Positions 46,197-63,867 of a DNA stretch of 64,000 nt are shown here, one piece after another. A program made the translations under genes and the position numbers. Position 1 is the first letter of the stretch. Every line of letters starts with the position of its first letter. The notes beneath the pieces were generated by a model. That model was not told the origin of the DNA and searched no databases. It saw only the letters and a program-made list of their open reading frames with translations. The DNA is from Justusliebigvirus alia, in the sequence record OZ035799.1, one strand, 5' to 3'.

Positions 46197-47140
46197 TATA
46201 AATCCTCGATAAGCAGTCTGCGGGTTTCATTTAAATCATCAATATTGTAGTTATCTCTTACATACTTAGCAAGAGCCAATCCTTTCTCAATACAAACATC
46301 AGGAGATTCGATTAAGTATTCTACAATATCTTTCCACTCTTTAACTGAATCAGCAAAGAAGATTAGATCTTTAAATTCTTCAGTATAATAGTTCTCTCGT
46401 GGCGAACAAACGAGTGGCAAACCTTTAGCACCAGCTTCAAGAATTTTTAAATTACTTTTGGCATTATTAAAATGATTATTTACTAACGGAGCTATGGAGA
46501 TTTGATGACCATCGTATGCTTCCATATAACACTCATAAGGACGAATACCTTCATAAACACAATCTGGTTGAATATCTTCTTTAATTTGCAACCATTGAGC
46601 ACTACTTAACTCTTCGTGATCTCTACGAAATCCACATAAAGTTAAATCTTTACCAAAACCAGGAAGAATAGCTAAATCATGTTTATGTGTTTCACTTCCC
46701 GCCCAAACCAGTGGACTTTTAGAATAACGGTCTTTTGTCAAAGTAAATTGACCTTCGTCGTAAGGTAGTGCGTTTCTAATAACGACAACATTACGATTTA
46801 AATGACGAATTTTGTAAGCTAGGTATTCTGTTGTTACAGTAACAACATCTGCTAACTTGACCATCTCTACGATAGTCTTTGAGTGATTAGCAAATACGCC
46901 AGCCATATAATGTTCAGGATTAAGTGAATAAAAGTCATCTAAATCAACAATAATCTTAACACCTTGTGCCTTGAGGCGTTTAACCTCGTCTGCTCCATGA
47001 GAATACACTCTATTAAAAACCAAAACGTCTTTCTTAGGTTTAAACGTATTTCCAGCAAATGGCATTACAATACGATGGTAATCACAACCACTGCCTAACT
47101 TATTATCACACTTAAGTACAGGAGTATTAGGATTTACCAT
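46196..47140 (-). CDS. Glycosyltransferase, GT-B fold (family 1-like)
   Basis: C-terminal motif SNLKILEAGAKGLPLVCS resembles the GT1 signature (K..EA.A.G.PvV). Start moved to the ATG at 47140 (RBS GAGGAGG). Confidence 0.6.
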   Translation of the reverse strand: MVNPNTPVLKCDNKLGSGCDYHRIVMPFAGNTFKPKKDVLVFNRVYSHGADEVKRLKAQGVKIIVDLDDFYSLNPEHYMAGVFANHSKTIVEMVKLADVVTVTTEYLAYKIRHLNRNVVVIRNALPYDEGQFTLTKDRYSKSPLVWAGSETHKHDLAILPGFGKDLTLCGFRRDHEELSSAQWLQIKEDIQPDCVYEGIRPYECYMEAYDGHQISIAPLVNNHFNNAKSNLKILEAGAKGLPLVCSPRENYYTEEFKDLIFFADSVKEWKDIVEYLIESPDVCIEKGLALAKYVRDNYNIDDLNETRRLLIEDL

Positions 47141-47813
47141 GTTTTTGAGCCTCCTCATAAGAGATAAAAGTTTTACCATTGCGAAGATCCTCCAGTGATT
47201 GTTTATATTGTTCCCAGTTTACACCAATCCCCTGTTCTTTCTCTTCTTTTGACAGATTCGCAAAAGGTAAAGGATTGTCTCCAAACACATCGTCAGGATG
47301 GATAAACGCCATAATTCGAATAGGACATGGTACGCCTTGAATACCTCGGTTCAAACCTGCCAGTGGAACGCGATGAATCCACTCTGCATCTTCATATCCA
47401 TAACCGTGGGTGTATGAGCGGAAATAGCCAGCTTTCTCAATAACTGCACGGGAATACATACCAAACTGGCACATTCCTAGCTCCCAAATAACCACTTCCC
47501 CTTCAATACCTTTTACTTTATCTTTAAAGTATTCAGGCATACCAAAGAAATCCCAACCATTTTCCTTCGCCTGTTTTACAAAATATGTTTCCCAACCTTG
47601 AACAACAGGATAGCAATCATCATCAAAAATAAACCAGTAATCATACCCTTCATCATAAAACTTTTTCATCAGTTCATTACGGGCATATGCAACACCTTTT
47701 CGTTCACGATCATACTGCACAACAAAAGTAGCATTAGGATCAGTCACAAGATAATCTTTAAGAGGACGCTTACCTACAGTAATAACACCAACACCGATTT
47801 TTGTATTTTCCAA
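47127..47813 (-). CDS. Glycosyltransferase-like protein (GT-A fold, DxD motif)
   Basis: FIFDDDCYP acidic motif and GYGYEDAEW; general GT-A-like layout. Weak, motif-only call. Confidence 0.4.
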   Translation of the reverse strand: MENTKIGVGVITVGKRPLKDYLVTDPNATFVVQYDRERKGVAYARNELMKKFYDEGYDYWFIFDDDCYPVVQGWETYFVKQAKENGWDFFGMPEYFKDKVKGIEGEVVIWELGMCQFGMYSRAVIEKAGYFRSYTHGYGYEDAEWIHRVPLAGLNRGIQGVPCPIRIMAFIHPDDVFGDNPLPFANLSKEEKEQGIGVNWEQYKQSLEDLRNGKTFISYEEAQKHGKS

Positions 47814-47822
47814 AATAACTCC

Positions 47823-48386
47823 TTAAATAATTTTATTCATGTCTTGACAATGTAAAAGGTGTGAAACAGCTTTCCTAGGATCATCACTACCTAAACGGTA
47901 TGTGTGAAATAAATATAACCCACGTAATAAACCTAGCCTTTTGTTGTTAGCATGTAATGCTTTAGAGAAAATTATATCAAACTGTATTGACCTTTCCTCA
48001 AAAGGTATTTCATTCCACAGGCTCTTACGAAAGAGAAGAAAGAATCCTGCTAAGATAGCATCTGTAGGTACTTCCTCTATTGAGTTTCCCCATTCTAGAT
48101 GTGCTCTTTTTGCAATCTCAATGTGGTGTAATATATTTGGATCTTCACTTCTTTCATTATTAAATAATTGATATGTTGATCCCAATCTATTACAAGATGC
48201 ACCAAGAACATCAAAATCAGGATTTGAACGGACTATTGATTCCAACCAAGCAGGTTGTTCTGGAAGAAGAAACATTGTATCAATGTCTCTTAGGCAAATC
48301 CAACTATCTTCTGGTAAGACACTTATTGTGTCATTGATACCTTTTCCAATATCTCCAGAAAGATAGGGAGTTATGTGAAATATCAT
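47823..48386 (-). CDS. Putative glycosyltransferase-like protein
   Basis: ICLRDIDTMF (DxD-like). Adjacent to two other glycosyltransferase candidates. Low-confidence motif call. Confidence 0.3.
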   Translation of the reverse strand: MIFHITPYLSGDIGKGINDTISVLPEDSWICLRDIDTMFLLPEQPAWLESIVRSNPDFDVLGASCNRLGSTYQLFNNERSEDPNILHHIEIAKRAHLEWGNSIEEVPTDAILAGFFLLFRKSLWNEIPFEERSIQFDIIFSKALHANNKRLGLLRGLYLFHTYRLGSDDPRKAVSHLLHCQDMNKII

Positions 48387-50390: not shown

Positions 50391-50987
50391 TTACTCGAAC
50401 CAATCGTCGCCAGCGCCAAACGCTTTAACTACATCATAAATGTCAAGTCCAGCTTTACCTACACCATATGCTTTCAGTTTCCATTCGTTATCTTCCCGCA
50501 CCAGGGAGGCAACGTGGCAAATGGTATTACCTGCAAGTTCTGGAGCCAAGAAGTCAAAGTCCAGCAGTTCAACGTTACGTTCATCATCGAAGATTTTAAG
50601 GAAACCTTCGGTAGCGTGACCAAGGCGTTTCTTACCCGTTTCGTCATCAATAGTAATTACGAATGCAATTTCCTGTGCTTCAGCAGAGATATTATCCAGT
50701 GTAACATCAATCTGCTCCATTTGCCCTACACCGTCACGAACATCTTCACCTGCAAAAGTAGAACGTTCAGGATCAAATTTCTGTGCGTAGCATACCAAGT
50801 GGCGAGGAGACAACAGTTCCGGCAGACCAGATGCATTGTGTCGGCAAATCAGAGCACTAACATCCAGATCCAGTTTTTCGTTAGATTTCCAAGAGAATTC
50901 CAGACGAATGCGTTTCAGTGCTGGTGCAATCTTTTTCAGAGAAACTTTTTCGCTAGAACCTTTTTTCAGGGAAATTTTCTGAGTCAT
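50391..50987 (-). CDS. terD: TerD-family stress protein (tellurite resistance TerD/TerE/TerZ-like)
   Basis: Matches TerD across its length when compared by eye with E. coli TerD as recalled: ISLKKGSSEKVSLKK, LDLDVSALIC, Ca-site-like FAGEDVRDGVG, IAFVITIDD, and C-terminal NEWKLKAYGVGKAGL. Confidence 0.85.
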   Translation of the reverse strand: MTQKISLKKGSSEKVSLKKIAPALKRIRLEFSWKSNEKLDLDVSALICRHNASGLPELLSPRHLVCYAQKFDPERSTFAGEDVRDGVGQMEQIDVTLDNISAEAQEIAFVITIDDETGKKRLGHATEGFLKIFDDERNVELLDFDFLAPELAGNTICHVASLVREDNEWKLKAYGVGKAGLDIYDVVKAFGAGDDWFE

Positions 50988-51059
50988 AATTTATTATCTC
51001 CTTTGTTGTTAATTTACGTTGTCTATTTTACTAATCTTTTCTACAAAGTCAAGCGTTTT

Positions 51060-51854
51060 TTACGCTTTTGCTCCAAATTTTTTAACCCACTCGCCAAACT
51101 CTTCAGATAGCAGTTTATCGTAAAGTTCTTCGTCAGACAAGGACAAATCTGCAATACCGATAAAATCAACATTATCGTATTCTTTTGCCAAGTCTTTCAG
51201 GAATTTAAAGTTTGCATTACCTACACCAACCATAAACCAGTAAACAGGAGTGTTGCGGTGTTTGTTCAGCAAACTACGTACTGCTGAAGTATCCATGTTC
51301 TCCCCGTCAGTTTGGAAGAAAATCATTGCAGGAGTACGATCAACTTGTGCATCAGTATCTACAACCTGTTCTACAACAGTACGTGTAACTTCTACACGTT
51401 CTTTTTTACCAGTTAGTTTAGCAAGGAAACCCTTAGCCGGAACTTCTTCATATTCAACGACTTCGCGTGTAATATTTTTCGTAGGTACACTACCGAAGTA
51501 TGTACCATAGATCTCTTGCATTACTGGAGCATAAGCTGTACCACCATTGATGCAAACATTAGACATGCAAGAGCCGACATAATCATCATATACATCAGCC
51601 GTTGCAGGAGGCAGTTCAAAAGAAGAACTATTGAAAGCCCACATGTCAATCTGTGCATTATCATCAAACTTCATACCAAACGGCAGCAGCTTACCTACAA
51701 AATCACTAACAGTGCCATCACGATACAGCTCACACATACTCCCCGAAATATCTAAGGCGCTACCGACACGAAGAACAACATCGTTAATCTTTTTCTTACG
51801 CAGAGATACAGTAAGAGTTTCTTGACGTTTTTTAAGACTGATTTTATTGGACAT
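51060..51854 (-). CDS. von Willebrand factor A domain protein (TerY-like)
   Basis: MIDAS motif DISGSM near the N-terminus, downstream Thr/Asp ligand candidates; adjacent to TerD. Confidence 0.65.
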   Translation of the reverse strand: MSNKISLKKRQETLTVSLRKKKINDVVLRVGSALDISGSMCELYRDGTVSDFVGKLLPFGMKFDDNAQIDMWAFNSSSFELPPATADVYDDYVGSCMSNVCINGGTAYAPVMQEIYGTYFGSVPTKNITREVVEYEEVPAKGFLAKLTGKKERVEVTRTVVEQVVDTDAQVDRTPAMIFFQTDGENMDTSAVRSLLNKHRNTPVYWFMVGVGNANFKFLKDLAKEYDNVDFIGIADLSLSDEELYDKLLSEEFGEWVKKFGAKA

Positions 51855-51855
51855 A

Positions 51856-52125
51856 TTATTTCTCCTTTCTGAGTGTAATGTTAGTAACTTCTAAATCCAC
51901 TTCTACCATTTCTGTATCATATGAAATACAGCTAAGTTGACCTCTTTGTGAACCGTTCAGACACATTGCTTGGTTTGTATTAACCTTAATAAACACTAAG
52001 TTTCTGAACGTATCTAAACCAGAATCTTGATAGGCAACATAATATACAAATGTATCACCTACGTCAAGTTCTCCAAAACATTTAGGTTCATCTGATTTGT
52101 CGTCTTTGATATTAAATTTAAGCAC
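51856..52125 (-). CDS. Hypothetical protein
   Basis: 89 aa ORF, coupled to neighbours. Confidence 0.35.
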   Translation of the reverse strand: MLKFNIKDDKSDEPKCFGELDVGDTFVYYVAYQDSGLDTFRNLVFIKVNTNQAMCLNGSQRGQLSCISYDTEMVEVDLEVTNITLRKEK

Positions 52126-52681
52126 TATCTCCTCCTTTACCTACTTTCCAACCTAAATAGAAAGCCTCTCTAGTGATTTTTTGCAACTCGTTTAAAGAGA
52201 TAGTTACAACTAAATCATCTTCAATTTCTAGCTTTGAGTCTTCTTCTGTCTCAATGCAAGTATTATGCACTTTGTGGTAAGGATTGTCAACACGTTTAAA
52301 TTTATTATTTTCAGTGCTGAAGAAGCAATCTGGATCTTCTTCCCCATCACCCCAACCCTGGTTAGGATCTTCTTCAGATCTTTCTGTTGGGATCTCGCCT
52401 GTAAAGTGCTCTTCTAATACCAGAGCAATCCCATCTCCAAGATCGGAAGAGAACATCAAATTACAAACTTCTTCCCAAGGCATAGACCACTTAAATCTTT
52501 TACGATTGCCATGTTTATCTTCTTCGTTAGAGAAAACACTACCATAACTATCATAATTCCCATACATCTCTTCGACAACCTTACCACCTTTCAAAAGAAA
52601 TAGGTAGCAAGGAGAGCCATCGAAAGAGGTAGAAAGAGCAGCATTACCAGACTCTTTGCACAAGAAACTAAAACACCCCAT
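52118..52681 (-). CDS. Hypothetical acidic protein
   Basis: 187 aa. C-terminal motif SLNELQKITREAFYLGWKVGKG is repeated in the next small ORF. Confidence 0.4.
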   Translation of the reverse strand: MGCFSFLCKESGNAALSTSFDGSPCYLFLLKGGKVVEEMYGNYDSYGSVFSNEEDKHGNRKRFKWSMPWEEVCNLMFSSDLGDGIALVLEEHFTGEIPTERSEEDPNQGWGDGEEDPDCFFSTENNKFKRVDNPYHKVHNTCIETEEDSKLEIEDDLVVTISLNELQKITREAFYLGWKVGKGGDSA

Positions 52682-52881
52682 TATACACCAGCCTTAAGAT
52701 CAATTAAGGCCAAAGTTGTTTCAGAGTGTGTTTGCTCGTCTACAGGTGCAGTCATATGATAATACAAAAAATCTTCGGCATCATACCAATCTGATTCTTG
52801 ACCTTGTTTCCAACCATCAATGAAAGCATCTTCCATAATGGTTTGCAATTCTTCACGAGTTAAGTGAATATCTTTACTCAT
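52681..52881 (-). CDS. Hypothetical small protein (paralogous motif)
   Basis: LTREELQTIMEDAFIDGWKQGQ repeats the motif at the C-terminus of the 52118 ORF. Confidence 0.3.
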   Translation of the reverse strand: MSKDIHLTREELQTIMEDAFIDGWKQGQESDWYDAEDFLYYHMTAPVDEQTHSETTLALIDLKAGV

Positions 52882-53087
52882 TACACATTCTCCTCTTTTA
52901 CCAATTCCATCGTTGAATTGTCAAAACCATCTTTAGAAGAATAGGTATAGACAGAACGTAGTTCTCGCAGGACAGTGAATACATTAGGATCATCTAACCA
53001 AGTATCCTGGAGGAGAACATAACGATCTTCATTGTCATACTGAACAGCAATCATAGAACCAGACAGTTTGTAAATTTTAATATTCAT
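52881..53087 (-). CDS. Hypothetical small protein
   Basis: Small ORF coupled to the TelA-like gene; start uncertain. Confidence 0.3.
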   Translation of the reverse strand: MNIKIYKLSGSMIAVQYDNEDRYVLLQDTWLDDPNVFTVLRELRSVYTYSSKDGFDNSTMELVKEENV

Positions 53088-53100
53088 AATATATTTCTCC

Positions 53101-54204
53101 TTAAAGTAGACCACGTTTAACAGTTTGAATCATACCATCTTCAAGAGATTGCACTTCTTGAATGTAATCAATACGAGCAGCACGGGCTTCAGTGTTGATT
53201 CGGTTAGTTTCTTCCAACATTTTAACTAAGTTTTCTTGATCACGACGCAATGTTTCAATATCCAATACTTGACGATTAGCAAGTTGTGTAGCTTCAATTT
53301 GGTTTTGTGCAGCCAGATCACTACCCATTGCAATAGCAGCATTAAATTCATTCAGTACATTGTTCTGCGTATCGGCTGCTTTCTTCTGGCGTAGACTTTC
53401 AATATACATAGAAAAGTTTGCAGAGTAAGCAGGAATAACATTATTCACAATATTACGGGCTGATCGCATCAAACTTGCAGATACTTTCTGCATACTTTGT
53501 ACACGTGGCCCCATCTGAACACACAGTAAGCGTAAGGCTTTCAGGTCTGCAATACGAATTTCAAGCAGATCCATAGTATCACGAGTACGTTGACGCTCTT
53601 CTACCTCATTTTCAGGTAGTGTATTAAGGCGAATTTCTTCTTTTTCATAAGTAGCTGTTAGAAGCTCTATATCCCTGTTTAAGCTAAGAGCATATTTTGC
53701 AATAGCTTCTTCTAAACGTTGCAGATATCGTAAAGAATCTTCTTCTTTTTTCAAGTCTGTTTGGAGTGTCTTTACCAAACCTTCAATACGGTTATTGATG
53801 GTGTCAAATTCTCCAAACAAATCTTCTTTCATACCTAAAACTTTCTTAACTAGTTTACCTAAACCTTTAGATTGTTTAATAGAGTTAGGATCAAGTTGCT
53901 TTGCTTGCTTAATAAGTGCAGTTAAACGTTCACTCATTTCATCTCCCTGAGATGAACGCTGGTGTTTAAGCACTTCAGCATTAAGGTTACGAAGAGTAAG
54001 TCCTGCATCAGCACCAACCTGTTCAATCTCTTCACGAGACATTGGAGGCAGCATTTGTACAGGTCGTGCAACAGCAGGGGCATATACAGGGCTTGCATCC
54101 ATAGCACTTGGAGCAAACAAAGACTTACTTTTTTCTGTTGTTGCCGTGAATACACTCATTTCAGACGGTTTGCTTTTTACGGCACTGATAAAAGGACTGG
54201 ACAT
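53101..54204 (-). CDS. TelA-like (toxic anion resistance family) coiled-coil protein, putative
   Basis: 367 aa with a disordered N-terminus and long coiled-coil body. Size and architecture fit TelA/KlaA proteins and the Ter gene context. No strict motif was verified. Confidence 0.4.
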   Translation of the reverse strand: MSSPFISAVKSKPSEMSVFTATTEKSKSLFAPSAMDASPVYAPAVARPVQMLPPMSREEIEQVGADAGLTLRNLNAEVLKHQRSSQGDEMSERLTALIKQAKQLDPNSIKQSKGLGKLVKKVLGMKEDLFGEFDTINNRIEGLVKTLQTDLKKEEDSLRYLQRLEEAIAKYALSLNRDIELLTATYEKEEIRLNTLPENEVEERQRTRDTMDLLEIRIADLKALRLLCVQMGPRVQSMQKVSASLMRSARNIVNNVIPAYSANFSMYIESLRQKKAADTQNNVLNEFNAAIAMGSDLAAQNQIEATQLANRQVLDIETLRRDQENLVKMLEETNRINTEARAARIDYIQEVQSLEDGMIQTVKRGLL

Positions 54205-54272
54205 TCAATTTCCTCCATATTCTTTAGTAGATGGTGATACCTCTGTACCACCATCATAACACAAATTAAGTA

Positions 54273-55124
54273 TTAAACAAACATATCTAAATAATTTGTA
54301 GTAATAAATGCTCCATCTGCTTCCAGATTAACATAACCAGTAGCATTAGTGGTTAAGAAATCCAGATCGAAGGACTCTTTAACACCCCGTACCTCAATAC
54401 GAGAGATATCGAATACAGGTAGTGTAACAGCCTCTTCGTGCAATACCGTACCTTTGTATGTTGCCTTAATGATAAACTTGATATTACCCGTTCCAGCATC
54501 ATACAAAACACTTTCAAACCCTTTGAGAGTATACTTATCACCAGAAGTGAAGTGCAAAGTTGCTTTGTTTACAGTACGTTTCTTACGAGGAGTTCCTTTC
54601 ACACGTTTATGATCACTACGTTTTTTGTACTTAGGAATGAATACAAACGATACATTCTGAAGAAAGGTATCAACATCCAGGATTTTAATATCCTCTGTTG
54701 CAGCAAATTTTGAAGTCGTTGCATCAAAATGCTTTTCCCTGCGATCATACATAAAGATATCAAACCGATCTTCTAAATCAAACAAATTATGTATTTTAAT
54801 TTCAGAATGCTTGCGCATTGCAGCAACCTTGAACTCTTCAAAACGTGGGTGTTCTACAAGTTCTTCAAGTTTTACACCAAAGACAGTATATTGTTTCGAA
54901 GTTTTTTCTGGCGTTGGCATTACAGAAGCATAATCACCGATTGCGCTTTTAAAGCAAAATTGTTCTTGACCTGTATTTTTACCAACGAATTTACAGTATT
55001 CGTCATCGTGCATACTTTCTTTGGTAGTACCAACAAACTCAAAACCATCTTTATTCTTCTCAAGAATTTCTTGATTAAAGATCCAACCTTCCAGGCGATA
55101 CACTTTACCAACTTCTAGTTTCAT
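54273..55124 (-). CDS. Hypothetical protein
   Basis: 283 aa ORF with AAGGAG RBS in the Ter island. Confidence 0.45.
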   Translation of the reverse strand: MKLEVGKVYRLEGWIFNQEILEKNKDGFEFVGTTKESMHDDEYCKFVGKNTGQEQFCFKSAIGDYASVMPTPEKTSKQYTVFGVKLEELVEHPRFEEFKVAAMRKHSEIKIHNLFDLEDRFDIFMYDRREKHFDATTSKFAATEDIKILDVDTFLQNVSFVFIPKYKKRSDHKRVKGTPRKKRTVNKATLHFTSGDKYTLKGFESVLYDAGTGNIKFIIKATYKGTVLHEEAVTLPVFDISRIEVRGVKESFDLDFLTTNATGYVNLEADGAFITTNYLDMFV

Positions 55125-55159
55125 CTGTTTCTCCTTCTTATTTAATCTGTATTAAATTA

Positions 55160-55750
55160 TTAACGACGACGTGAGCTACTAAAACTACGTTTCGACGAAG
55201 AATAACTTTTCGAAGACTTACTATAAGAGCTAATAGGGCTTGAGTAAGACTTACGAGCAGAGTAATCACTATTCACTTTTGTTGTTGACGGGCGTGAATA
55301 CGTTTGTACACTTTGCTGCTTAATTGTGTTTTGTTTAGTGGTTGTATATGTATTTCCTTGTTTATCATAAAAACTATGCTTTTGTGTTGTATATGCTTTA
55401 CTGTTAGTTGTAGGAGCAGCGTTGTTATTAATAATTGTTGTGCTGCTACCACCATCTCTATAACCGCCACCGCCACTATTACCACTCAACATATGACCAA
55501 GAAGCATACCTGTAGCAAACTCACCTACGCCAGAAGAACCACTGCCGCCTCCTTGCACAACAACTGTTGAAGGTTGTGCAGGTGCTGCTTGAACAACTTG
55601 AGGTGCAGGCTGATTTACATATTGTTCATCTACCATCTGATTTGGTGTTTGTTGGTAACGTTGATTTTGTACATTTTCAGAATCATCACAACCTACCAGC
55701 AATGCACTACCTAATACAACTGCAACAATAAAAGATTTAATGTTTTTCAT
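55160..55750 (-). CDS. Lipoprotein with Gly-rich and Ser/Tyr/Thr-rich low-complexity regions
   Basis: Signal peptide plus lipobox (VVLGSALLVGC). Start moved to the ATG at 55750 (RBS GAGAGG). Gln/Pro-rich linker, GGGSGSSG, then S/Y/K repeats. Confidence 0.5.
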   Translation of the reverse strand: MKNIKSFIVAVVLGSALLVGCDDSENVQNQRYQQTPNQMVDEQYVNQPAPQVVQAAPAQPSTVVVQGGGSGSSGVGEFATGMLLGHMLSGNSGGGGYRDGGSSTTIINNNAAPTTNSKAYTTQKHSFYDKQGNTYTTTKQNTIKQQSVQTYSRPSTTKVNSDYSARKSYSSPISSYSKSSKSYSSSKRSFSSSRRR

Positions 55751-55943
55751 TTGTAACCCTCTCATTTAAAGTCTCAACACAATTTTTAAAATCCCTAGAG
55801 AAACAATACATCTGTTCTCCGTTCCTGTTGATAGTAATTGTATGGTTATCAATATATGTTGTCAAGATAAAAATCAAACAAAACAACCCTAGAGCAAAAC
55901 AAATATTTTCAAACAGAATCCAAAGAACACGTAAAACCACCAT
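55737..55943 (-). CDS. Small membrane protein
   Basis: Single hydrophobic helix LWILFENICFALGLFCLIFIL. Confidence 0.3.
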   Translation of the reverse strand: MVVLRVLWILFENICFALGLFCLIFILTTYIDNHTITINRNGEQMYCFSRDFKNCVETLNERVTNEKH

Positions 55944-55956
55944 CAGATCACCTCAA

Positions 55957-55978
55957 CAAAGCCCCCGAAGGGGCTTAA
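55957..55978 (-). terminator. Hairpin after TerC (minus strand)
   Basis: AAGCCCC-TTCG-GGGGCTT; weak U tail. Confidence 0.4.
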
Positions 55979-55982
55979 TGAA

Positions 55983-56960
55983 TTAAGCAACAGTCTGGTC
56001 TTCTTTTTCAGGGAAGATTAAACTTGCAATAACACCCAGCCCAAGAGTACCTAACACAATATACATACTGATCGTCGGATCAATGTGTGCTGGCAGGAAA
56101 CTCACTTTTGCGTGCAGAGTTTCTGCAAACGGGTGATACATCAGTTTTACACCCACAAATACCAGGACTACGATAACTGCTTTCTCCAGATGAACCAAAT
56201 ACTTCAGTGCAACACTAAGAACAAAGAACAGAGCACGTAAACCTAAGATTGCACAGAGCATCGAAGAGAACACCAGCAGAGGTTCTTGTGTCACCGCAAT
56301 TACTGCTGGAACAGAGTCTACTGCAAAGATTACGTCAACCATTTCCATTACAAACACACAAACCAGAGCCGGAGTTGCTACACGAACACCATTTTTGATT
56401 GTGAAGAACTTCTCACCATCCATCTGATCAGATACAGGGAACAGCTTACGAACAATGCGAGTAGCCCAGTGTTTAGAGTAATCAACTTCTGCATCATTAT
56501 CCCCAGCGAATACCATTTTAGCCGCACAGAAAAGGATGACAGCACCGAAGAAGATATTAACATACCAGCCCAAACTCAACAAGTAAGTGCCTACTGCTAC
56601 AAACACACCTCGGAAGACAATCGCACCTGCAATACCCCAAAGTAGAATTTTGTGCTGCAAGTGTGTGCTTTTAATACCAAAACTTGCGAAGACTGCCACA
56701 AATACTACTAAGTTATCTACAGAAAGAGATTTCTCCAACACATACCCACTCAAGAACAAGCTCGCAAAATCAGCACCGTGTTGGAAGTATACAAAACCAT
56801 AGTAGGCTAATGATACCCCAATCCAGAAAATTGACCAGCCAATTGCAGATTTAAATGAAATTTCTTTGTTTTCTCTGTGTCCAAAGAAGTCAATACAAAT
56901 CGACAAGACTAAAATACCCACTAAAACAACCACATCAATAATTGGGAAACCCAGTTGCAT
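55983..56960 (-). CDS. terC: TerC-family integral membrane protein
   Basis: Multi-pass membrane protein with the TerC signature YVLEKSLSVDNLVVF and a second-half repeat VDVIFAVDSVPAVIAV. Confidence 0.8.
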   Translation of the reverse strand: MQLGFPIIDVVVLVGILVLSICIDFFGHRENKEISFKSAIGWSIFWIGVSLAYYGFVYFQHGADFASLFLSGYVLEKSLSVDNLVVFVAVFASFGIKSTHLQHKILLWGIAGAIVFRGVFVAVGTYLLSLGWYVNIFFGAVILFCAAKMVFAGDNDAEVDYSKHWATRIVRKLFPVSDQMDGEKFFTIKNGVRVATPALVCVFVMEMVDVIFAVDSVPAVIAVTQEPLLVFSSMLCAILGLRALFFVLSVALKYLVHLEKAVIVVLVFVGVKLMYHPFAETLHAKVSFLPAHIDPTISMYIVLGTLGLGVIASLIFPEKEDQTVA

Positions 56961-57037
56961 TCTTTTCTCCTCTTTAATGCGGAGGACAATCCTCCGCTCT
57001 ATGTCTTATACTATAAACTGTTTTTAAAGAAAGTCAA

Positions 57038-57286
57038 CTAGTTCAGTTCTGTAATTTTAAGTTTATCTTCTTTGTTAATGATAGGGAAAGCTACAGCATC
57101 ACCTACGTCATCAATAAAGCAAATAGCAAGACCACCTTCCACTTTGCTAATCTGACCATTAAAGGCGTGATACGGGGCAGGAACTTGATCTCCATCTTCA
57201 AGGAGAATAGCCTCGTAAACCTTGCCGATAGTACAATCACGAGTGTTTCTAAATTTTTCAAGCACTTCAACATTTACTTTACGCAT
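57038..57286 (-). CDS. Hypothetical protein
   Basis: 82 aa ORF; hairpin GCGGAGG-N5-CCTCCGC at 56979-56997 lies between it and the TerC RBS. Confidence 0.35.
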   Translation of the reverse strand: MRKVNVEVLEKFRNTRDCTIGKVYEAILLEDGDQVPAPYHAFNGQISKVEGGLAICFIDDVGDAVAFPIINKEDKLKITELN

Positions 57287-57300
57287 ATAAAAATCCTCTC

Positions 57301-57507
57301 TTATTTGTTAGATTGAAAGATACCACGAAGTACCGCAAGAATGAACGTCACACAGACTACACTCCAAAACGTTACAGGAACATGATGCCAGTCTAAGCCG
57401 ATAATGTCAATCATATAATTGTATGCTAAAAGCAGTAGCCAACTAGGGATTAACACAATCAAGAACACAACAATAAAACAACCTAATACTGCTAAAACAC
57501 CTGCCAT
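57301..57507 (-). CDS. Small two-TM membrane protein
   Basis: Hydrophobic segments VLAVLGCFIVVFLIVLIPSWLLLL and VTFWSVVCVTFILAVL. Confidence 0.35.
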   Translation of the reverse strand: MAGVLAVLGCFIVVFLIVLIPSWLLLLAYNYMIDIIGLDWHHVPVTFWSVVCVTFILAVLRGIFQSNK

Positions 57508-57516
57508 ACTTTCTCC

Positions 57517-58233
57517 TTATTTCAGTTTGTAAACAATTACATTTAAACCTTTGTTTACTAGAGTTTCTTCGATCATAAGTTTTACAATATTCCAAGAACC
57601 TCCAGCCAAACCACAACCAAGCATTGGTAAACCTACAATTTTACCGCCTGAAGATACAACATCGTCTCCCATACTATCTAACGCATTATAGATAGCTTCA
57701 TAATTCAGGTCACGCTTGCCTTCCTCACGACGACTATAACCATATTGTCCATATAAATTATAAATTGTCAAATTGTTTTCTGTATACTTGGTAAACGTAC
57801 CTAATTTTTTATAATCACCACGTTTAGTGGCACAATCTGCTTTAAACGCACCAGGCCACTTGCTTTTAATTTTTGGTGCAATACCACTACCCATAGTGCA
57901 AAAACAGTTACAGCAGTGTGCTATAGCGTCTATATCGCCTCTCTCGGCTGCTGCTAAAAGATCACCGTATACCTCAATGATACCTGCTGGATAACTTGTT
58001 ACAATTTCATCTTCCCAGTACATTTTCTCTACACCACCGATCAGTGCAAAGTTTTGTGTAATGCGATCATCAATATAGTTAAGACCTGAAACATACACAG
58101 CGTATTCATCCTGTGCTGTAATACCTTGCACACGAATTCTTAAGACACCATCTTTATCTGTTGCTACACGCCCAAAATCTTTTTCTGTAATATTGGTGAT
58201 AGGATCTCCGAAAGTCATTACTTTATTAGACAT
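57517..58233 (-). CDS. Macro-domain protein (putative ADP-ribose / ADP-ribose-derivative binding or processing)
   Basis: Compared by eye with MacroD-type proteins: GDLLAAAERGDIDAIAHCCNC (DAIVNAAN-like), MGSGIAPKI (GGGV..AI-like), KIVGLPMLGCGLAGGS (IAFP.ISTGIYG-like). ATG overlaps the PRTase stop (ATGTCTAA). Confidence 0.5.
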   Translation of the reverse strand: MSNKVMTFGDPITNITEKDFGRVATDKDGVLRIRVQGITAQDEYAVYVSGLNYIDDRITQNFALIGGVEKMYWEDEIVTSYPAGIIEVYGDLLAAAERGDIDAIAHCCNCFCTMGSGIAPKIKSKWPGAFKADCATKRGDYKKLGTFTKYTENNLTIYNLYGQYGYSRREEGKRDLNYEAIYNALDSMGDDVVSSGGKIVGLPMLGCGLAGGSWNIVKLMIEETLVNKGLNVIVYKLK

Positions 58234-59083
58234 AATAATCCCCTTTAACATTAGATTTGTTGATAATGTTGCTTTCAAAAAATTGACGTAGGAAATCAAA
58301 GTTCTCTTTATATTTTTCAATGTTATTGTAGCCTTCTGCAAGGCAACCAAAGAACAGTTGTTCTACATAATACAAAGGAAGTTGTGAAAGTGCAATTTTA
58401 AAATCAACTTCGCTTTGACTCATTAGATACTTAATAGGACGAACCAAACATTTAGCATCAGTTTCTTGCTTAATCATTTTAATAAAAGCTGCCAGGTTAT
58501 TGATATAGTTGAAGTTAAGTGCAGCTTCGGTATTGGCTTCTGTACCTTCATACTTTGCAAAGTACAGGAAAAACGTATCGTTTTCAACACCTTCTTTGTC
58601 TAAAATTTCAATAAGTTTTTCTTCGTGCGTTCCTGTAATATTAACATCATCAATGAAAATCAGAGTTTTATTACCCCAGAAATCACGATTGATAGAGAAA
58701 GTGTCACCATCGATCAAAGCCTTACGATCTTCTTTGCTAAGAAATCCATAATCATTGATATAGCTCACTTTACGATGAACGATATCCCACTCCACTGGTT
58801 TACCACCTTTGATAGAGATTAGGTAGTTGAGGTGGTCTACAAAATGTTCAGATAACACTGTAGCTGCATTTTTCACATAGTTATATGGAGATGGAATAAC
58901 AACAAAACTTTCATTTACCAGTCGTTCTTCATACTTAGAAAAGAAACTTTCAGCCAGAATGCGCCCCATTCTTTTTGCTGCCTGGTTACTACCAAACTTT
59001 AGTTTGGAATAATCTGCAATGTTAAATTTTGCTTCCTTCAGGTTAGTAAAAGTATTAGCAAAATGTTGAATTTGATTACGCAT
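58226..59083 (-). CDS. Phosphoribosyltransferase-like protein (type I PRTase fold) with C-terminal helical extension
   Basis: PRPP-binding loop motif KTLIFIDDVNITGTHEE (hydrophobic-DD-xxTG-T). Start overlaps the stop of the upstream HAD gene. Confidence 0.55.
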   Translation of the reverse strand: MRNQIQHFANTFTNLKEAKFNIADYSKLKFGSNQAAKRMGRILAESFFSKYEERLVNESFVVIPSPYNYVKNAATVLSEHFVDHLNYLISIKGGKPVEWDIVHRKVSYINDYGFLSKEDRKALIDGDTFSINRDFWGNKTLIFIDDVNITGTHEEKLIEILDKEGVENDTFFLYFAKYEGTEANTEAALNFNYINNLAAFIKMIKQETDAKCLVRPIKYLMSQSEVDFKIALSQLPLYYVEQLFFGCLAEGYNNIEKYKENFDFLRQFFESNIINKSNVKGDYYV

Positions 59084-59732
59084 TAATAAGTTCCTCTTTT
59101 TTAAGTTTAGCCAACAAGTCTTCTGGATTAATAATATGACAGAACTTCATCCCTATGTCAACAGCTTTTCCATCATAGATCAAACTATCTCCAACGTGTA
59201 AGATCTCCTCTGGTGCGAGATCAAACGTTACCATTTCATCAAAAGAGAGTTTAAAAAACCTAGGATCTGGTTTACACAAGCAAAACTCATCAGAAAAATG
59301 CATAAAGTCAAATGGTAATTTTGTCAAGCCAGAATATACAGCTAAGAAACTACCAGGTACAAAATTGGTATTGCTCTTAATACTCAAAGAATAGGTTGAA
59401 CTTAGCTCTTCCAACTTCTTGCAAAGTTCAGGGTTTAATGTTGGAGGATGTTTTATAAACATTGCTAAACAGTCTCTTTTTAACCCATCTACTTTATCAA
59501 GATCAATGTTCAAACGAGCAGAAAGTGTTTCCCAAGCATTTCTAGATGTTCCACAAATGCCTTTTTCTGCTTTTAAATCCAGGAGAGTTTTTACCTCTTT
59601 ATATACGGTAGCTGCTTCTACCTCAGAACAAGAGGCATACTCGGCAATAACCTTGTTGCGTTCTTCTGCATACAAAGGATTAGCAGTAATAAGAGTATTC
59701 CATACATCAAAAGAAATATGCTTAACAGTCAT
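59076..59732 (-). CDS. HAD-superfamily hydrolase (phosphatase/dehalogenase-like)
   Basis: Motif I-like HISFDVWNTLI (DxxxTL) and motif IV HVGDSLIYDGKA. Start moved to the ATG at 59732 (RBS GGAGGA). Confidence 0.55.
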   Translation of the reverse strand: MTVKHISFDVWNTLITANPLYAEERNKVIAEYASCSEVEAATVYKEVKTLLDLKAEKGICGTSRNAWETLSARLNIDLDKVDGLKRDCLAMFIKHPPTLNPELCKKLEELSSTYSLSIKSNTNFVPGSFLAVYSGLTKLPFDFMHFSDEFCLCKPDPRFFKLSFDEMVTFDLAPEEILHVGDSLIYDGKAVDIGMKFCHIINPEDLLAKLKKEELINA

Positions 59733-59901
59733 TTTTAATCCTCCGTCCAAAAGAATATCATCTGCTTAATTTTATTGATCTCTTGATGTAGTAACTTTCC
59801 AGCATGTGATTGATCTTTAATATTGACAGCAAGAATTTCAAGCTCCGTCAGTTTTTCTTGGATAGCTTTATATTCATCATCTGTAAGCATTTTCTTCCCC
59901 T

Positions 59902-60093
59902 TTAGAATGGTAATCTTTGTATGTCACTTATCCCCACACCAAGAAGTCTAGCAATATCCTTATCTAAAAGCAACTCTTTTTGTTCTAAAATGTTAATCAG
60001 ATCTCCTAATACTTCTTTAATGTCACGATCATTTTTAGCAACGTGACCACCTGCCGTATCAACTTTATCTTTAAAAACAAAGTAATGATCCAT
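59902..60093 (-). CDS. Hypothetical small protein
   Basis: Short ORF after the AAA+ ATPase terminator; start likely at the internal ATG with GGAGGG RBS. Confidence 0.3.
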   Translation of the reverse strand: MDHYFVFKDKVDTAGGHVAKNDRDIKEVLGDLINILEQKELLLDKDIARLLGVGISDIQRLPF

Positions 60094-60099
60094 AATACC

Positions 60100-60133
60100 C
60101 TCCATATAAATAAAGGAGGCTTTCGCCTCCTTT
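60100..60133 (-). terminator. Rho-independent terminator after the AAA+ ATPase gene (minus strand)
   Basis: AAAGGAGGC-GAAA-GCCTCCTTT followed by ATTTATAT. Confidence 0.55.
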
Positions 60134-61320: not shown

Positions 61321-61791
61321 TTAGTCAGATTCCCAAATGTTGTCTTTCTTAATCCACATTCGTTGATTATCTGAACCTCTATAACGTTTCGTTGTTGGTT
61401 GATTCATATCATACTTACCATCTATCACTATGTCAACCAGTTTTTTAATTTTTTCTGGAATTTCTTCAAAAAGATATCCTGTATATAAGACAATATCTTT
61501 TTTGTTTCCAAAACAATCTCTTACCTTTTCAAGAACATACTCTACAGTGTCAATGTTCTCTTTGTCAAGAGGTTCACCACCTAAAACGGTTAATCCTTTA
61601 ATGAAAGGTCGAGATAAATCTTTCAAGATAAGATCTAATGTTTCAGTAGTGAACTCTTGTCCGTAGTTATACGACCAGGCTTTCTGGTTAAAGCAGCCAC
61701 GGCAACCGTGGCTACAACCGCTCACCCACAAAGAGCATCTTACACCGTCACCGTTGAGCATGTCAACAGGTTCATATCCGGCGTAATTCAA
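61321..61791 (-). CDS. nrdG: Anaerobic ribonucleotide reductase activating protein (radical SAM)
   Basis: Cys cluster CSLWVSGCSHGCRGC (CxxxCxxC) near the N-terminus, ~156 aa, directly downstream of and overlapping nrdD. Confidence 0.8.
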   Translation of the reverse strand: MNYAGYEPVDMLNGDGVRCSLWVSGCSHGCRGCFNQKAWSYNYGQEFTTETLDLILKDLSRPFIKGLTVLGGEPLDKENIDTVEYVLEKVRDCFGNKKDIVLYTGYLFEEIPEKIKKLVDIVIDGKYDMNQPTTKRYRGSDNQRMWIKKDNIWESD

Positions 61792-62729
61792 AAATGTTTC
61801 TCCCTTTCTAATACTTCTTGCATTTTACCTTTATTATAAGGGCGAGAGTTAGGGGCAGAAAGGTATCCTGACACTCTTCTGATTACAGATATAGATTCTT
61901 CCTCATGATTGCCACAACTTGGACACTCGAAGCCTTTAGCTGTTGCCTTAAATTCACCATGAAAACCACATTTGAAACACTGATCTACAGGTTGGTTCAC
62001 GCCAAAATAAGGAATTTTGTTGTAGGCATAATCTACAAGAGTTTCCAGTGCTTGCAAGTTATTTTTAAGGTTTGGTGTTTCTACATAACCTATGTTCCCA
62101 CCATTACTGATTTGTGCAAAACCTTCCTCATAATCCCACTTTTGGAACGGGGTAGTGTGCATCCACACAGGTTGATGGAAAGAGTTTGTCAAGTAGTCAC
62201 GATCAATAGAACCTGGATAGCGATCATTTAATGCTTTGGCAAATTTATAGCACAAGGATTCTGCTGGTGTTCCATACAAACTAAAAGCTAAACCAGAACG
62301 TTCTTTAAATGTGCCACAGATATCCTTCATATATTGAAGGATGTTTTTACCCATTGCTTTTGGATTGGTGTTACCTGGGTATAAAATCTCCATAGCTTCT
62401 GCTAAACCTACATAACCGATACTAATAGAGGCATAACCACCTTCGAATAGCTTACCAATCTCTTCATTAGCTTCTAGTCGAGCTAAAGCCCCTTCCATAA
62501 ACAATGTAGGGTTTTGAGATGCTTTGGTATGTCTAATACGGTTAACACGTAGTATATGTGCCTTATACGCCATCTCCATATGTTGTTCCAACAGTTCAGT
62601 AAATAAGATGCCCTTTTCACGGGACTCTGCTGCAATGATAGGTAAGTTTAAAGAAACCACGCCTAAGTTGAAACGACCATCATATTTTTCACCTTGCTCT
62701 GTTGCATAGTATGACAAGAAACTTCTACA
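61788..62729 (-). CDS. nrdD: Anaerobic ribonucleoside-triphosphate reductase, exon 2
   Basis: Glycyl-radical motif RRVSGYL and C-terminal Zn ribbon CFKCGFHG...CPSCG. The ORF-track N-terminus MALRATLNIM is intron-derived; the exon probably starts at the CRSFLS codon. Confidence 0.8.
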   Translation of the reverse strand, partial: CRSFLSYYATEQGEKYDGRFNLGVVSLNLPIIAAESREKGILFTELLEQHMEMAYKAHILRVNRIRHTKASQNPTLFMEGALARLEANEEIGKLFEGGYASISIGYVGLAEAMEILYPGNTNPKAMGKNILQYMKDICGTFKERSGLAFSLYGTPAESLCYKFAKALNDRYPGSIDRDYLTNSFHQPVWMHTTPFQKWDYEEGFAQISNGGNIGYVETPNLKNNLQALETLVDYAYNKIPYFGVNQPVDQCFKCGFHGEFKATAKGFECPSCGNHEEESISVIRRVSGYLSAPNSRPYNKGKMQEVLEREKHF

Positions 62730-63009
62730 CATTATGTTCAAAGTGGCTCGCAAGGCCACTCCCGCACCATTACGTGCTGCTGCATGTCACCATGCAGATC
62801 AGACTATATCTTCATGCTTAAAGCATGTCTACCATTTGGGGTGTCATAGGCTTACACCCTACGCTGCTACATTCATCACAGCTAGTCGTTAGGCATTTCG
62901 TAATAGTACCCCCCTTCTTCTGTGTTGGGAGTTCTGTTACGTTTAGCACGGGATTGTCTCGTTGAGAGTTCCCCCGTTTAGGCAGATTTTACATGAGCAG
63001 TTATAGTTT
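62730..63009 (-). ncRNA. Group I self-splicing intron in nrdD (~280 nt, no internal ORF)
   Basis: Minus-strand sequence contains the conserved core elements in order: P-like AAACGGGGGAAC, Q-like ACAATCCCGTGC, R CCTAACGACTAGC, S AAGATATAGTCTG. 5' exon ends in U, intron ends in G. Reading frame is interrupted by a stop just inside the intron. Confidence 0.75.
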
Positions 63010-63867
63010 ACCCATGCTTGTGACGCGACCATCTGAAGATCCTGTAACTTCTTTGTTTAAAGGTACAGAGATAAAATCAGGATAAATGCGTTCAGCACAA
63101 CACTCCATTGCCAGTTGCTTCAAATCATAGTTTGGATCGCCAGCTTTCATGTTAACACCATCTTCCAAGAAGAAGATAACTTTAGGAAACACAGGAGTTA
63201 CCCTATCTTTTCCTAATCCTTGTTTGTGCACCATTAGGTAGTTTTTAGTGATCATTCTACCAAAAGCAGAGGTATCCAAACCTAAACTAATTGTTATAAA
63301 AGGTGACTGACCATTTACACTCATTAGAGTGTTCACTTGGTAGATTAAAGTTTGCATTGCATCATAGACCTGTTTATCTACCATACGCATAGCAATATCA
63401 TAATCACCAACATCAGCATATATTTTATTAAAACTTGCTTTAACGTATTGACTAAGCCCAGTATCAACATGTGCACAAGTTTGTCCACCATATTGGCTAG
63501 AAGCTACTGCTTGAATAATTTGAGTTAGGACAGTAGTCGCTACACCGATAGATTTTGGTTTTTCAATATGTGCATTACCAATACGGAAACCGTTCTCAAG
63601 CATATCTTGGTAATTTACCAGGCAACAATTAGTTAAAGGTGAGAGTAAATAATCTAAATCGTGGATGTGACCATACCCACTTTTATGCCATTCTGCCAGA
63701 TCTTCCGGTAAAATATGGGTCATTGCCATGTGCTTGCTTAGGATACCTGCTAGTAAATCTCGGTGAGTATTAACAATCATTGCAGGTTTGTTTGCATTTT
63801 CACGAGTAAATTCTTCGGATGTTTGTTCGAGGAATCCGATTACATCCTCATATAGTTTTTGGGTCAT
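63010..63867 (-). CDS. nrdD: Anaerobic ribonucleoside-triphosphate reductase, exon 1
   Basis: 288 aa N-terminal part ending ...DGRVTSMG; joined to exon 2 gives a ~602 aa NrdD. RBS GGAGGA before the ATG at 63867. Confidence 0.8.

Follow-up and report, generated by a model that had tools for sequence, protein, structure and literature searches.

The Ter system is widespread in pathogens and has for decades been tied to resistance to tellurite, colicins and phages, while its chemistry is unsolved. Phosphoribosyltransferases (PRTases) and HAD phosphoesterases linked to Ter genes were reportedly predicted by Anantharaman, Iyer and Aravind in 2012 to make a nucleoside-like metabolite, and PRTase_3 (PF15610) is presumably among the PRTase families defined in that comparative-genomic study. 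The metabolite model was restated, with reference to the 2012 work, in the jumbo-phage paper of Iyer et al. 2021, which also noted a phage-borne version of the PRTase/HAD pair in Acinetobacter phage ME3 and ‘certain other smaller tailed phages’ (PMC7824862). A second described system is that of the phage macrodomains called AdfM: T4 Tk.4 was given this name in a study in which transposon sequencing and a clean knockout showed it to be needed against DarTG2 (bioRxiv 10.1101/2025.11.20.689424), and chimallivirus macrodomains including PhiKZ gp104, which remove DarT2-made ADP-ribose from DNA, received the same name independently (PMC13309987). Here we analyse a 64,000-nucleotide (nt) stretch of DNA from Justusliebigvirus alia (OZ035799.1; ‘the window’), in which genes for a HAD hydrolase, a PRTase and a macrodomain protein (‘macro’) follow one another with overlapping ends.

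An earlier, sequence-only reading of this DNA had joined all three genes into one pathway or complex. On balance, and with moderate confidence, we favour instead two modules in one transcription unit: a Ter-linked HAD–PRTase_3 pair and an AdfM-like macrodomain. Both kinds were known in phages already, the Ter-linked pair since 2021 and the AdfM macrodomains since 2025–2026; what is new is that phi92-like coliphages can be placed in both.

The window covers the opening 64 kb of a Justusliebigvirus genome, a phi92-like Escherichia coli myovirus of the Stephanstirmvirinae; by megablast the region matches OZ035770.1 at 100% identity, and phi92, Paula and three BASEL phages (EmilieFrey, JohannJBalmer and PaulScherrer) at 98–99%. 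Every gene of the trio region lies on the minus strand. The HAD stop and PRTase start share 8 nt (ATGCGTAA), as do the PRTase stop and macro start (ATGTCTAA), so that the three overlapping genes had been described correctly, with exact coordinates. Each of the three starts has its own Shine–Dalgarno sequence (GGAGGA, AGAGGA and AAGGGGA). Overlaps are common in this type of genome: of 48 neighbouring junctions in the annotated, near-identical EmilieFrey, 16 are overlaps and 33 lie at ≤15 nt, which makes two successive overlaps unremarkable and weak evidence. The non-random feature is the HAD–PRTase adjacency or overlap, which is kept across distant phages and bacteria.

Searches by tblastn detected the PRTase in 156 phage genomes, the HAD in 155 and TerD in 142; PRTase and HAD share one taxonomic spread. 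The HAD gene lies directly before PRTase_3, in most cases with an overlap, in phAPEC8, XaC1 (a Xanthomonas jumbo phage), RHph_Y65 (Rhizobium) and CcrColossus (Caulobacter), and the same order is found in Klebsiella phage phi1_175008 and Citrobacter phage Tr1. The two are also paired in seven large metagenomic phage contigs. The sole phage case in which we saw the pair split is L042 (L numbers denote the loci that we compared), where a 302-amino-acid (aa) gene with a faint DUF4379 match and a 60-aa open reading frame (ORF) come between HAD and PRTase (L042:8311-10825). Among 21 bacterial loci taken from one-genome-per-species contigs (Rhizobiaceae, Bacteroidales, Peribacteria and Pedococcus), the HAD gene was immediately upstream of PRTase_3 in 20. 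This strictly conserved adjacency gives good support to a phosphoribosyl pyrophosphate (PRPP)-dependent transferase that would work together with the HAD. A tblastn search of plasmids with the PRTase (E 1e-3) returned only rhizobial and Hymenobacter plasmids and no classical enterobacterial ter plasmid; at the same threshold, no similarity to the window PRTase was detected for the PRTases of R478/O157-type ter clusters.

The decisive context, missing from the sequence-only reading, is the Ter cluster downstream. The four Ter genes of the phage (TerC, TelA, vWA-TerF and TerD) lie 0.1–8 kb downstream on the same strand, with a sigma70-like promoter match and a GC hairpin (56979-56997) in front of TerC. 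Two bacterial loci embed the pair in bona fide Ter operons. That of a Tannerella metagenome-assembled genome (L032, Bacteroidales) carries three TerD, three vWA/TerY (one with TerY_C), PP2C, a protein kinase, HAD, PRTase_3 and a P-type ATPase, and that of Pedococcus (L036) carries DUF475/TerC, vWA-TerF, two TerD, HAD and two PRTase_3. Of the seven metagenomic phage contigs, five likewise have Ter genes no more than 10 kb from the pair. Classification of the HAD and PRTase_3 genes as a minimal Ter biosynthetic pair is well supported.

The PRTase matched PF15610 at 143 bits (E 1.5e-41; cut-off 28.7) over profile positions 14-264 of 264. It is a type I phosphoribosyltransferase of the ‘ComF-like’ PRTase_3 family with an intact PRPP loop (LIFIDDVNITGTH), in agreement with its earlier designation as a PRPP-type transferase. 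Across 67 homologues, 39 residues are invariant, among them D145, D146, T150, G151 and H153 of the PRPP loop, Y108, D111, G113 and R120 in a flexible loop of low model confidence (about residues 101-130), and R215, K218 and E250 in a family-specific C-terminal helical domain. The predicted structure was confident (predicted local distance difference test score, pLDDT, 92) and has a type I PRTase fold with a flexible loop, nearest in this model to ComF and to purine/pyrimidine salvage PRTases. On this model, the conserved residues are those that would be expected of a working type I PRTase whose acceptor pocket is unusual. A sequence search of the Protein Data Bank (PDB) gave nothing meaningful, only a spurious match at E 0.09, and a literature search found no paper mentioning the PRTase_3/PF15610 family and no characterised member.

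The HAD matched PF00702 marginally (27.1 bits against a cut-off of 26.4), PDB 2om6 at E 4.6e-9 (alignment over residues 3-211), several NCBIfam HAD-IA models at E of about 1e-8 to 1e-9, and phrog_14393. Motifs II–IV are intact in the alignment (SIKSNT, CKPDP and HVGDSLIYDG), and the helical insert that separates motifs I and II is a putative C1-type cap, a feature that in HADs points to a small molecule as substrate. Motif I reads FDVWNTL, with the nucleophile Asp kept and D-x-W in place of D-x-D. The D-x-D-x-T/V pattern of HAD phosphatases is therefore lacking, its Asp+2 general acid/base being a Trp, and D-x-W-x-T-L is invariant in all 19 aligned phage and bacterial HAD homologues (the window protein and 18 from L003–L036). 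This family-wide motif is a new detail. It makes the label ‘phosphatase’ an assumption, so that of the earlier call the superfamily stands, on PF00702, 2om6 and motifs II–IV, and the activity is insecure. The HAD may need another proton donor, or it may perform different chemistry.

The macro protein passed the curated threshold of PF01661 (31.3 bits), and the macrodomain identity, profile comparison included, is secure. Its predicted fold is nearest to BT1257, DarG and TARG1; by sequence it matches SCO6735 and BT1257 best (E about 3e-15) and DarG less well (E about 6e-4). Searched against PADLOC and NCBIfam, it matched only DarG (1.1e-13 and 5.5e-13, respectively); for the NCBIfam DarG model the score was 48.9 against an equivalog cut-off of 250, over model positions 4-147 of 338, which are the macrodomain part. 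Among phage proteins, it is 28% identical to Tequatrovirus Tk.4 (BLASTP E 1e-15) and 34.7% identical to JSE Tk.4 (tblastn). No DarT-like gene was found among the annotated or scanned neighbours of macro. Judging by these relatives, macro is most likely an anti-DarT2 eraser of DNA ADP-ribose, of the AdfM or orphan-DarG type. The near-identical relatives Bas60–62 encode a NADAR enzyme shown to neutralise DarT1, and a second eraser aimed at DarT2 would fit alongside it.

We propose the following course of events. The type I PRTase would attach ribose-5-phosphate from PRPP to a small nucleophile, such as a base-like compound, and the capped HAD would then process the product, classically by removing the 5′-phosphate to leave a nucleoside-like metabolite. 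This metabolite could act on or through the Ter proteins, with TerD/TerB-type ligand binders and with TerC and TelA at the membrane. During infection, Ter action could make the cell more resistant to stress or keep superinfecting phages out. Macro, standing alone, would remove ADP-ribose placed on thymidine of phage DNA by DarT2-type toxins.

Several findings weigh against this proposal. To our knowledge, no PRTase_3 family enzyme or Ter-linked HAD has been assayed, and the missing Asp+2 makes the phosphatase step doubtful. The pair occurs with no Ter genes nearby on rhizobial plasmids, alone beside repA, and no Ter gene lies within 8–10 kb of it in Rhizobium phages and XaC1-like phages; dependence on Ter is thus not obligatory. 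Among the ORFs scanned at 47–61 kb, there was no ATP-grasp protein, TIM-barrel C–C lyase or PRTase_1/2. On the macro side, HMMER and MAFFT alignments place Gln163 at the catalytic Lys (TARG1 K84, DarG K80) and Ala210 at TARG1 Asp125; with both residues replaced, the mechanism must differ from that of DarG. The same substitutions are found in BT1257, SCO6735 and Tk.4, and the evidence for T4 Tk.4 is genetic and from a preprint. Finally, in the Stephanstirmvirinae lineages examined, macro is always downstream of the PRTase in the same operon, a constant position from which a local functional link between macro and pair is possible.

The target of macro could lie elsewhere. It might act on ADP-ribosylation of protein or RNA, or on soluble ADP-ribose derivatives, rather than on DarT2-modified DNA: Glu-linked ADP-ribose (as for SCO6735, which we take to be a protein-Glu de-ADP-ribosylase), ADP-ribose-1″-phosphate (Poa1p-like), O-acetyl-ADP-ribose or TIR/Thoeris-type signals. 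The higher scores of SCO6735 and BT1257 compared with DarG, and Gln163 in place of the catalytic Lys of DarG and TARG1, would agree with such a target, and the additional N-terminal domain (N-domain) of macro could redirect specificity. However, T4-type Tk.4 shares this Gln (LYTQ) and, by genetics, is needed against DarTG2, DarG was the only PADLOC/NCBIfam match, and the anti-DarT1 NADAR enzyme of the relatives suggests selection by DarT systems. We regard a target other than DNA as unlikely.

The N-domain is phage-specific and is 31–36% identical to the N-terminus of a gene, here called gene X, that lies between PRTase and macro in phi1_175008 (187 aa) and Tr1 (142 aa). The C-terminal half of gene X is a MazG-like pyrophosphatase (phrog_1247, E 5e-21), resolved only by PHROGs, with no Pfam or PDB match to this part. 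An exhaustive HMMER scan of 1.84 billion representatives yielded only six N-domain relatives, including a 71-aa stand-alone form, a MazG-like fusion and one other fusion, and a word-indexed search with the N-terminal 91 aa of macro gave two fragments only. Outside the window, the domain (about 75 aa) is present at L014:9847-10410 and L015:9850-10278 and in proteins P0124, P0125 and P0127. A second N-domain–macro fusion, P0129, is 53% identical to that of the window and follows a PRTase in an independent contig. The motifs GR[IV]A, F.LIGG and MYWE are conserved in its N-domain, which shows the extension to be coding and under selection. AlphaFold2 gave no fold assignment (pLDDT 33–53, from a shallow alignment).

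In Justusliebigvirus, an in-frame deletion of the MazG-like half of the upstream gene probably joined the N-domain to the macrodomain. The same deletion would have brought the macro start against the PRTase stop, creating the 8-nt overlap. This swap of the domain from a MazG-like to a macro enzyme, which would account for the PRTase–macro overlap, is new. As the N-domain heads two nucleotide-processing enzymes, we speculate that it has a targeting or partner-binding role, and its swap between them may reveal how such enzymes are targeted.

The distribution of macro bears on the proposal that HAD, PRTase and macro form one pathway or complex making or dismantling a phosphoribosyl- or ADP-ribosyl-containing small molecule; in one version the PRTase would make a ribotide, the HAD would trim it and macro would bind or hydrolyse an ADP-ribosyl derivative. 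The 8-nt overlaps at both junctions of a single unit speak for it. So does the gene order, macro always coming after the PRTase within one operon in Justusliebigvirus, in Phapecoctavirus, in the Klebsiella and Citrobacter relatives and in L037, and so does the intervening gene of the sister phages, itself a nucleotide enzyme (MazG-like) that shares the N-domain with macro. But macro homologues, present in 2,972 phage records (of which just 69 cover the N-terminal part), are spread about 20 times more widely than the pair. No macro homologue was found within about 10 kb of the pair at any of the 21 bacterial loci, and none was adjacent to it in XaC1, RHph_Y65, CcrColossus or the seven metagenomic contigs (the distance is 8 kb in XaC1 and 6 kb in L039). 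Spacing and gene content between PRTase and macro also vary: the two overlap in Justusliebigvirus only, are 1 nt apart in the diverged sister lineage L037 and 13 nt apart in phAPEC8 (with a macro protein of just 157 aa), and have one gene between them in the Klebsiella phage but two in that of Citrobacter, whereas HAD/PRTase overlap or abutment is widely conserved. Together with the frequency of overlaps in the genome (16 of 48 junctions) and the fact that the homologues T4 Tk.4 and PhiKZ gp104 act alone against DarTG2, this makes a three-enzyme pathway improbable in our judgement.

What survives of that proposal is the tight unit and the coupling of HAD to PRTase; macro as a third step is not supported, in view of its distribution, its variable spacing and its stand-alone anti-DarTG2 homologues. 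Likewise, the three-gene synteny, when sought in other phages, holds widely for HAD and PRTase_3, and for macro adjacency only within the Stephanstirmvirinae. For annotation, the lesson is that reliance on overlap and adjacency alone led here to the over-prediction of a three-enzyme pathway.

The pair itself could be a Ter-independent counter-defence or salvage device of the phage. It might rebuild nucleotides or a nicotinamide adenine dinucleotide (NAD) precursor from bases freed by host nucleosidase or NADase effectors, or it might consume PRPP or a defence signal, with its proximity to Ter reflecting the clustering of an accessory anti-defence region. Such a role is suggested by the flanks in sister genera (AbiEi-like gp047, DarG-like macro and MazG-like gene X), by the occurrences of the pair away from Ter genes described above and by the likeness of the PRTase fold to ComF and purine/pyrimidine salvage PRTases. 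It is opposed by the presence of the pair inside Ter operons in at least two phyla (Bacteroidota and Actinomycetota), by the lack of any PADLOC match for the pair and by the HAD, an obligatory partner that salvage does not obviously need and that would undo the nucleotide. The specific NAD-salvage version, a Nampt-like PRTase with a nicotinamide mononucleotide (NMN) adenylyltransferase, was rejected: the PRTase is type I and ComF-like, no NMN adenylyltransferase lies near the pair, and a Rhizobium-phage neighbour annotated ‘NMN adenylyltransferase/NUDIX’ matches only NUDIX. We hold a Ter-independent device of either kind to be rather improbable. A last idea, that the D-x-W HAD and PRTase_3 make a novel ribosylated small molecule or a ribosyl mark on a macromolecule, and that in phi92-like phages the neighbouring enzymes bearing the N-domain (macro in the window, MazG-like in sister phages) join their complex through it and edit or degrade the product or its ADP-ribosyl analogue, is a long shot, and if true would describe a phage ‘writer/eraser’ set of nucleotide signals controlling the Ter membrane machinery during infection.

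Returning to the Ter-linked pair and AdfM-like macrodomain of the window, we collected the features of the locus in Table 1. The trio sits in the middle of a packed unit of seven genes (orf67, orf51, HAD, PRTase, macro, orf68 and orf82), with TerC downstream, and co-expression in one tight minus-strand unit is plausible. The upstream boundary is likely the terminator-like hairpin, past which orf67 is the first gene; orf67 is kept upstream of HAD in the Stephanstirmvirinae. The hydrophobic orf68, which probably has two transmembrane helices, is kept after macro in sister genera (tblastn: L003, L014, L015 and L037). A sigma70 promoter scan gave 23 matches against 17 ± 3.5 expected and was uninformative on operon boundaries. 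An Rfam search of 55.5–60.5 kb found no riboswitch or other RNA, and no yybP-ykoY element before TerC.

Table 1. Positions of the HAD, PRTase and macro genes and of neighbouring features in the window.
Feature	Position	Strand	Size, matches and remarks
HAD	59076-59732	-	218 aa
PRTase	58226-59083	-	285 aa
Macro protein	57517-58233	-	238 aa
N-domain of macro protein	57994-58233	-	About 80 aa; phage-specific, fused to macrodomain; motifs GR[IV]A, RI, F.LIGG, MYWED
Macrodomain of macro protein	57517-57984	-	aa 84-238 of 238; BT1257/SCO6735/TARG1/DarG clade; T4-type Tk.4 (AdfM) homologue
orf67	59902-60105	-	67 aa; phi92 gp189 family; phrog_17780; tblastn matches in L003, L014, L015, L016
orf51	59735-59890	-	51 aa; ends 2 nt upstream of HAD start; phrog_24275
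orf68	57301-57507	-	68 aa; hydrophobic; 9 nt downstream of macro; phrog_16065
orf82	57038-57286	-	82 aa; phi92 gp183 family; last gene before TerC; phrog_17459
Terminator-like hairpin and T-run	60112-60133	-	Between AAA ATPase gene and orf67; annotated terminator in phage Paula
TerC/Alx-family integral membrane protein	55983-56960	-	325 aa; PF03741 1.2e-38; TIGR03718 322.8 bits, above cut-off
TelA-family protein	53101-54204	-	367 aa; PF05816 7.9e-34
vWA-TerF-like protein	51060-51854	-	264 aa; PF10138 1.6e-38
TerD-domain protein	50391-50987	-	198 aa; PF02342 4.1e-28

In sister genera, a 201-aa gene matching PADLOC AbiEi antitoxin models (E 4.7e-13) lies directly upstream of HAD (L003:6745-7350, which is phAPEC8 gp047; L014:7742-8347; and L015:7744-8349). 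It is absent from the window, where orf67 and orf51 precede HAD, and it may be another counter-defence gene of the orphan-antitoxin type. Further conserved ORFs are interspersed among the Ter genes of the window (50391-56960), including a lipoprotein-like Ser/Gly-rich protein at 55160-55765. In the XaC1-like jumbo phages (L009/L010, L040 and L004), the pair has an RNA-repair-like neighbourhood of RNA ligase, DUF2828/DUF7788 (vWA-like), 2H phosphoesterase, CCA-adding enzyme, NUDIX and YqeY. Three records of ‘Campylobacter phage’ with the labelled host Campylobacter jejuni carry close relatives of the window PRTase: A145 (MG065645) and A110a (MG065689), both phi92-like, at 99.6% identity, and B15 (MG065650), phAPEC8-like, at 64.7%; the A145 macro is 98.3% identical to that of the window. 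These host labels look doubtful.

Elsewhere in the window, nrdD (anaerobic ribonucleotide reductase) is split into ORFs 61788-62759 and 63001-63867 by a group I intron at 62780-63055 on the minus strand (Rfam RF00028, 72.3 bits, E 2.6e-18, full-length model); nrdD is uninterrupted, at 1.8 kb, in EmilieFrey and Paula. In the minus-strand region of 47127-48386 and upstream, a weak match, below the cut-off, to the TET-associated glycosyltransferase family PF20691 (24.1 bits) lies at 47127-47813. Its neighbouring genes are annotated as glycosyltransferases or disaccharide synthases in EmilieFrey, and there may be a relation to DNA or surface glycosylation.

The main value of the locus is as a tractable entry point into the unsolved chemistry of Ter, for which the PRTase_3–HAD pair is the most tractable enzymatic handle. 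A minimal pair accompanied by TerD, vWA-TerF, TelA and TerC in virulent E. coli phages that are easy to manipulate, such as phi92, BASEL Bas61 (EmilieFrey) and their close relatives, makes a compact genetic system. The macro gene, for its part, extends the AdfM class of orphan-antitoxin counter-defence to the Stephanstirmvirinae.

Compared with known systems, the two enzymes of the pair stand at some distance from their nearest described relatives. The PRTase is 12% identical to ComF/ComFC (Helicobacter pylori, PDB 7p0h) over 147 residues; unlike ComF/ComFC it is without an N-terminal zinc-finger module, and it has the C-terminal helical domain peculiar to PRTase_3, which ComF/ComFC lack. Their genomic settings also differ, being Ter/HAD for PRTase_3 and competence for ComF/ComFC. 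The best sequence matches of the HAD are HAD-IA proteins of the REG-2-like/PH0253 type (PDB 2om6; TIGR02252/TIGR02253), among which we know of none with a defined substrate. PDB 2om6 has an identical DVWNTL motif I, and motifs II–IV are conserved between the two, while the 36 bits scored against TIGR02252/TIGR02253 are far under the curated NCBIfam cut-offs of 155–170.

With the predicted Ter biosynthetic module, the locus has in common a PRTase_3 gene directly after HAD and the neighbourhood of TerD, TerC, TelA and vWA-TerF. Unlike the full module, the version of the window is minimal, the ORFs scanned at 47–61 kb containing only the core of a single PRTase and a single HAD; it resides in a virulent 148-kb coliphage, and with D-x-W in place of D-x-D in its HAD the ‘phosphoesterase’ step of the module is insecure here. 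Like AdfM (Tk.4 and PhiKZ gp104), macro is a phage macrodomain from which the DarT-binding domain of DarG is missing. The Asn conserved in H-x-x-N is present in macro, which has Gln at the TARG1 K84 position, as does Tk.4, whereas PhiKZ AdfM retains the catalytic Lys, K78; the extra N-domain of macro is absent from Tk.4 and phAPEC8 gp050. From the DarG of DarTG2, macro differs both in lacking that C-terminal DarT-binding domain and in being unpaired with a DarT toxin.

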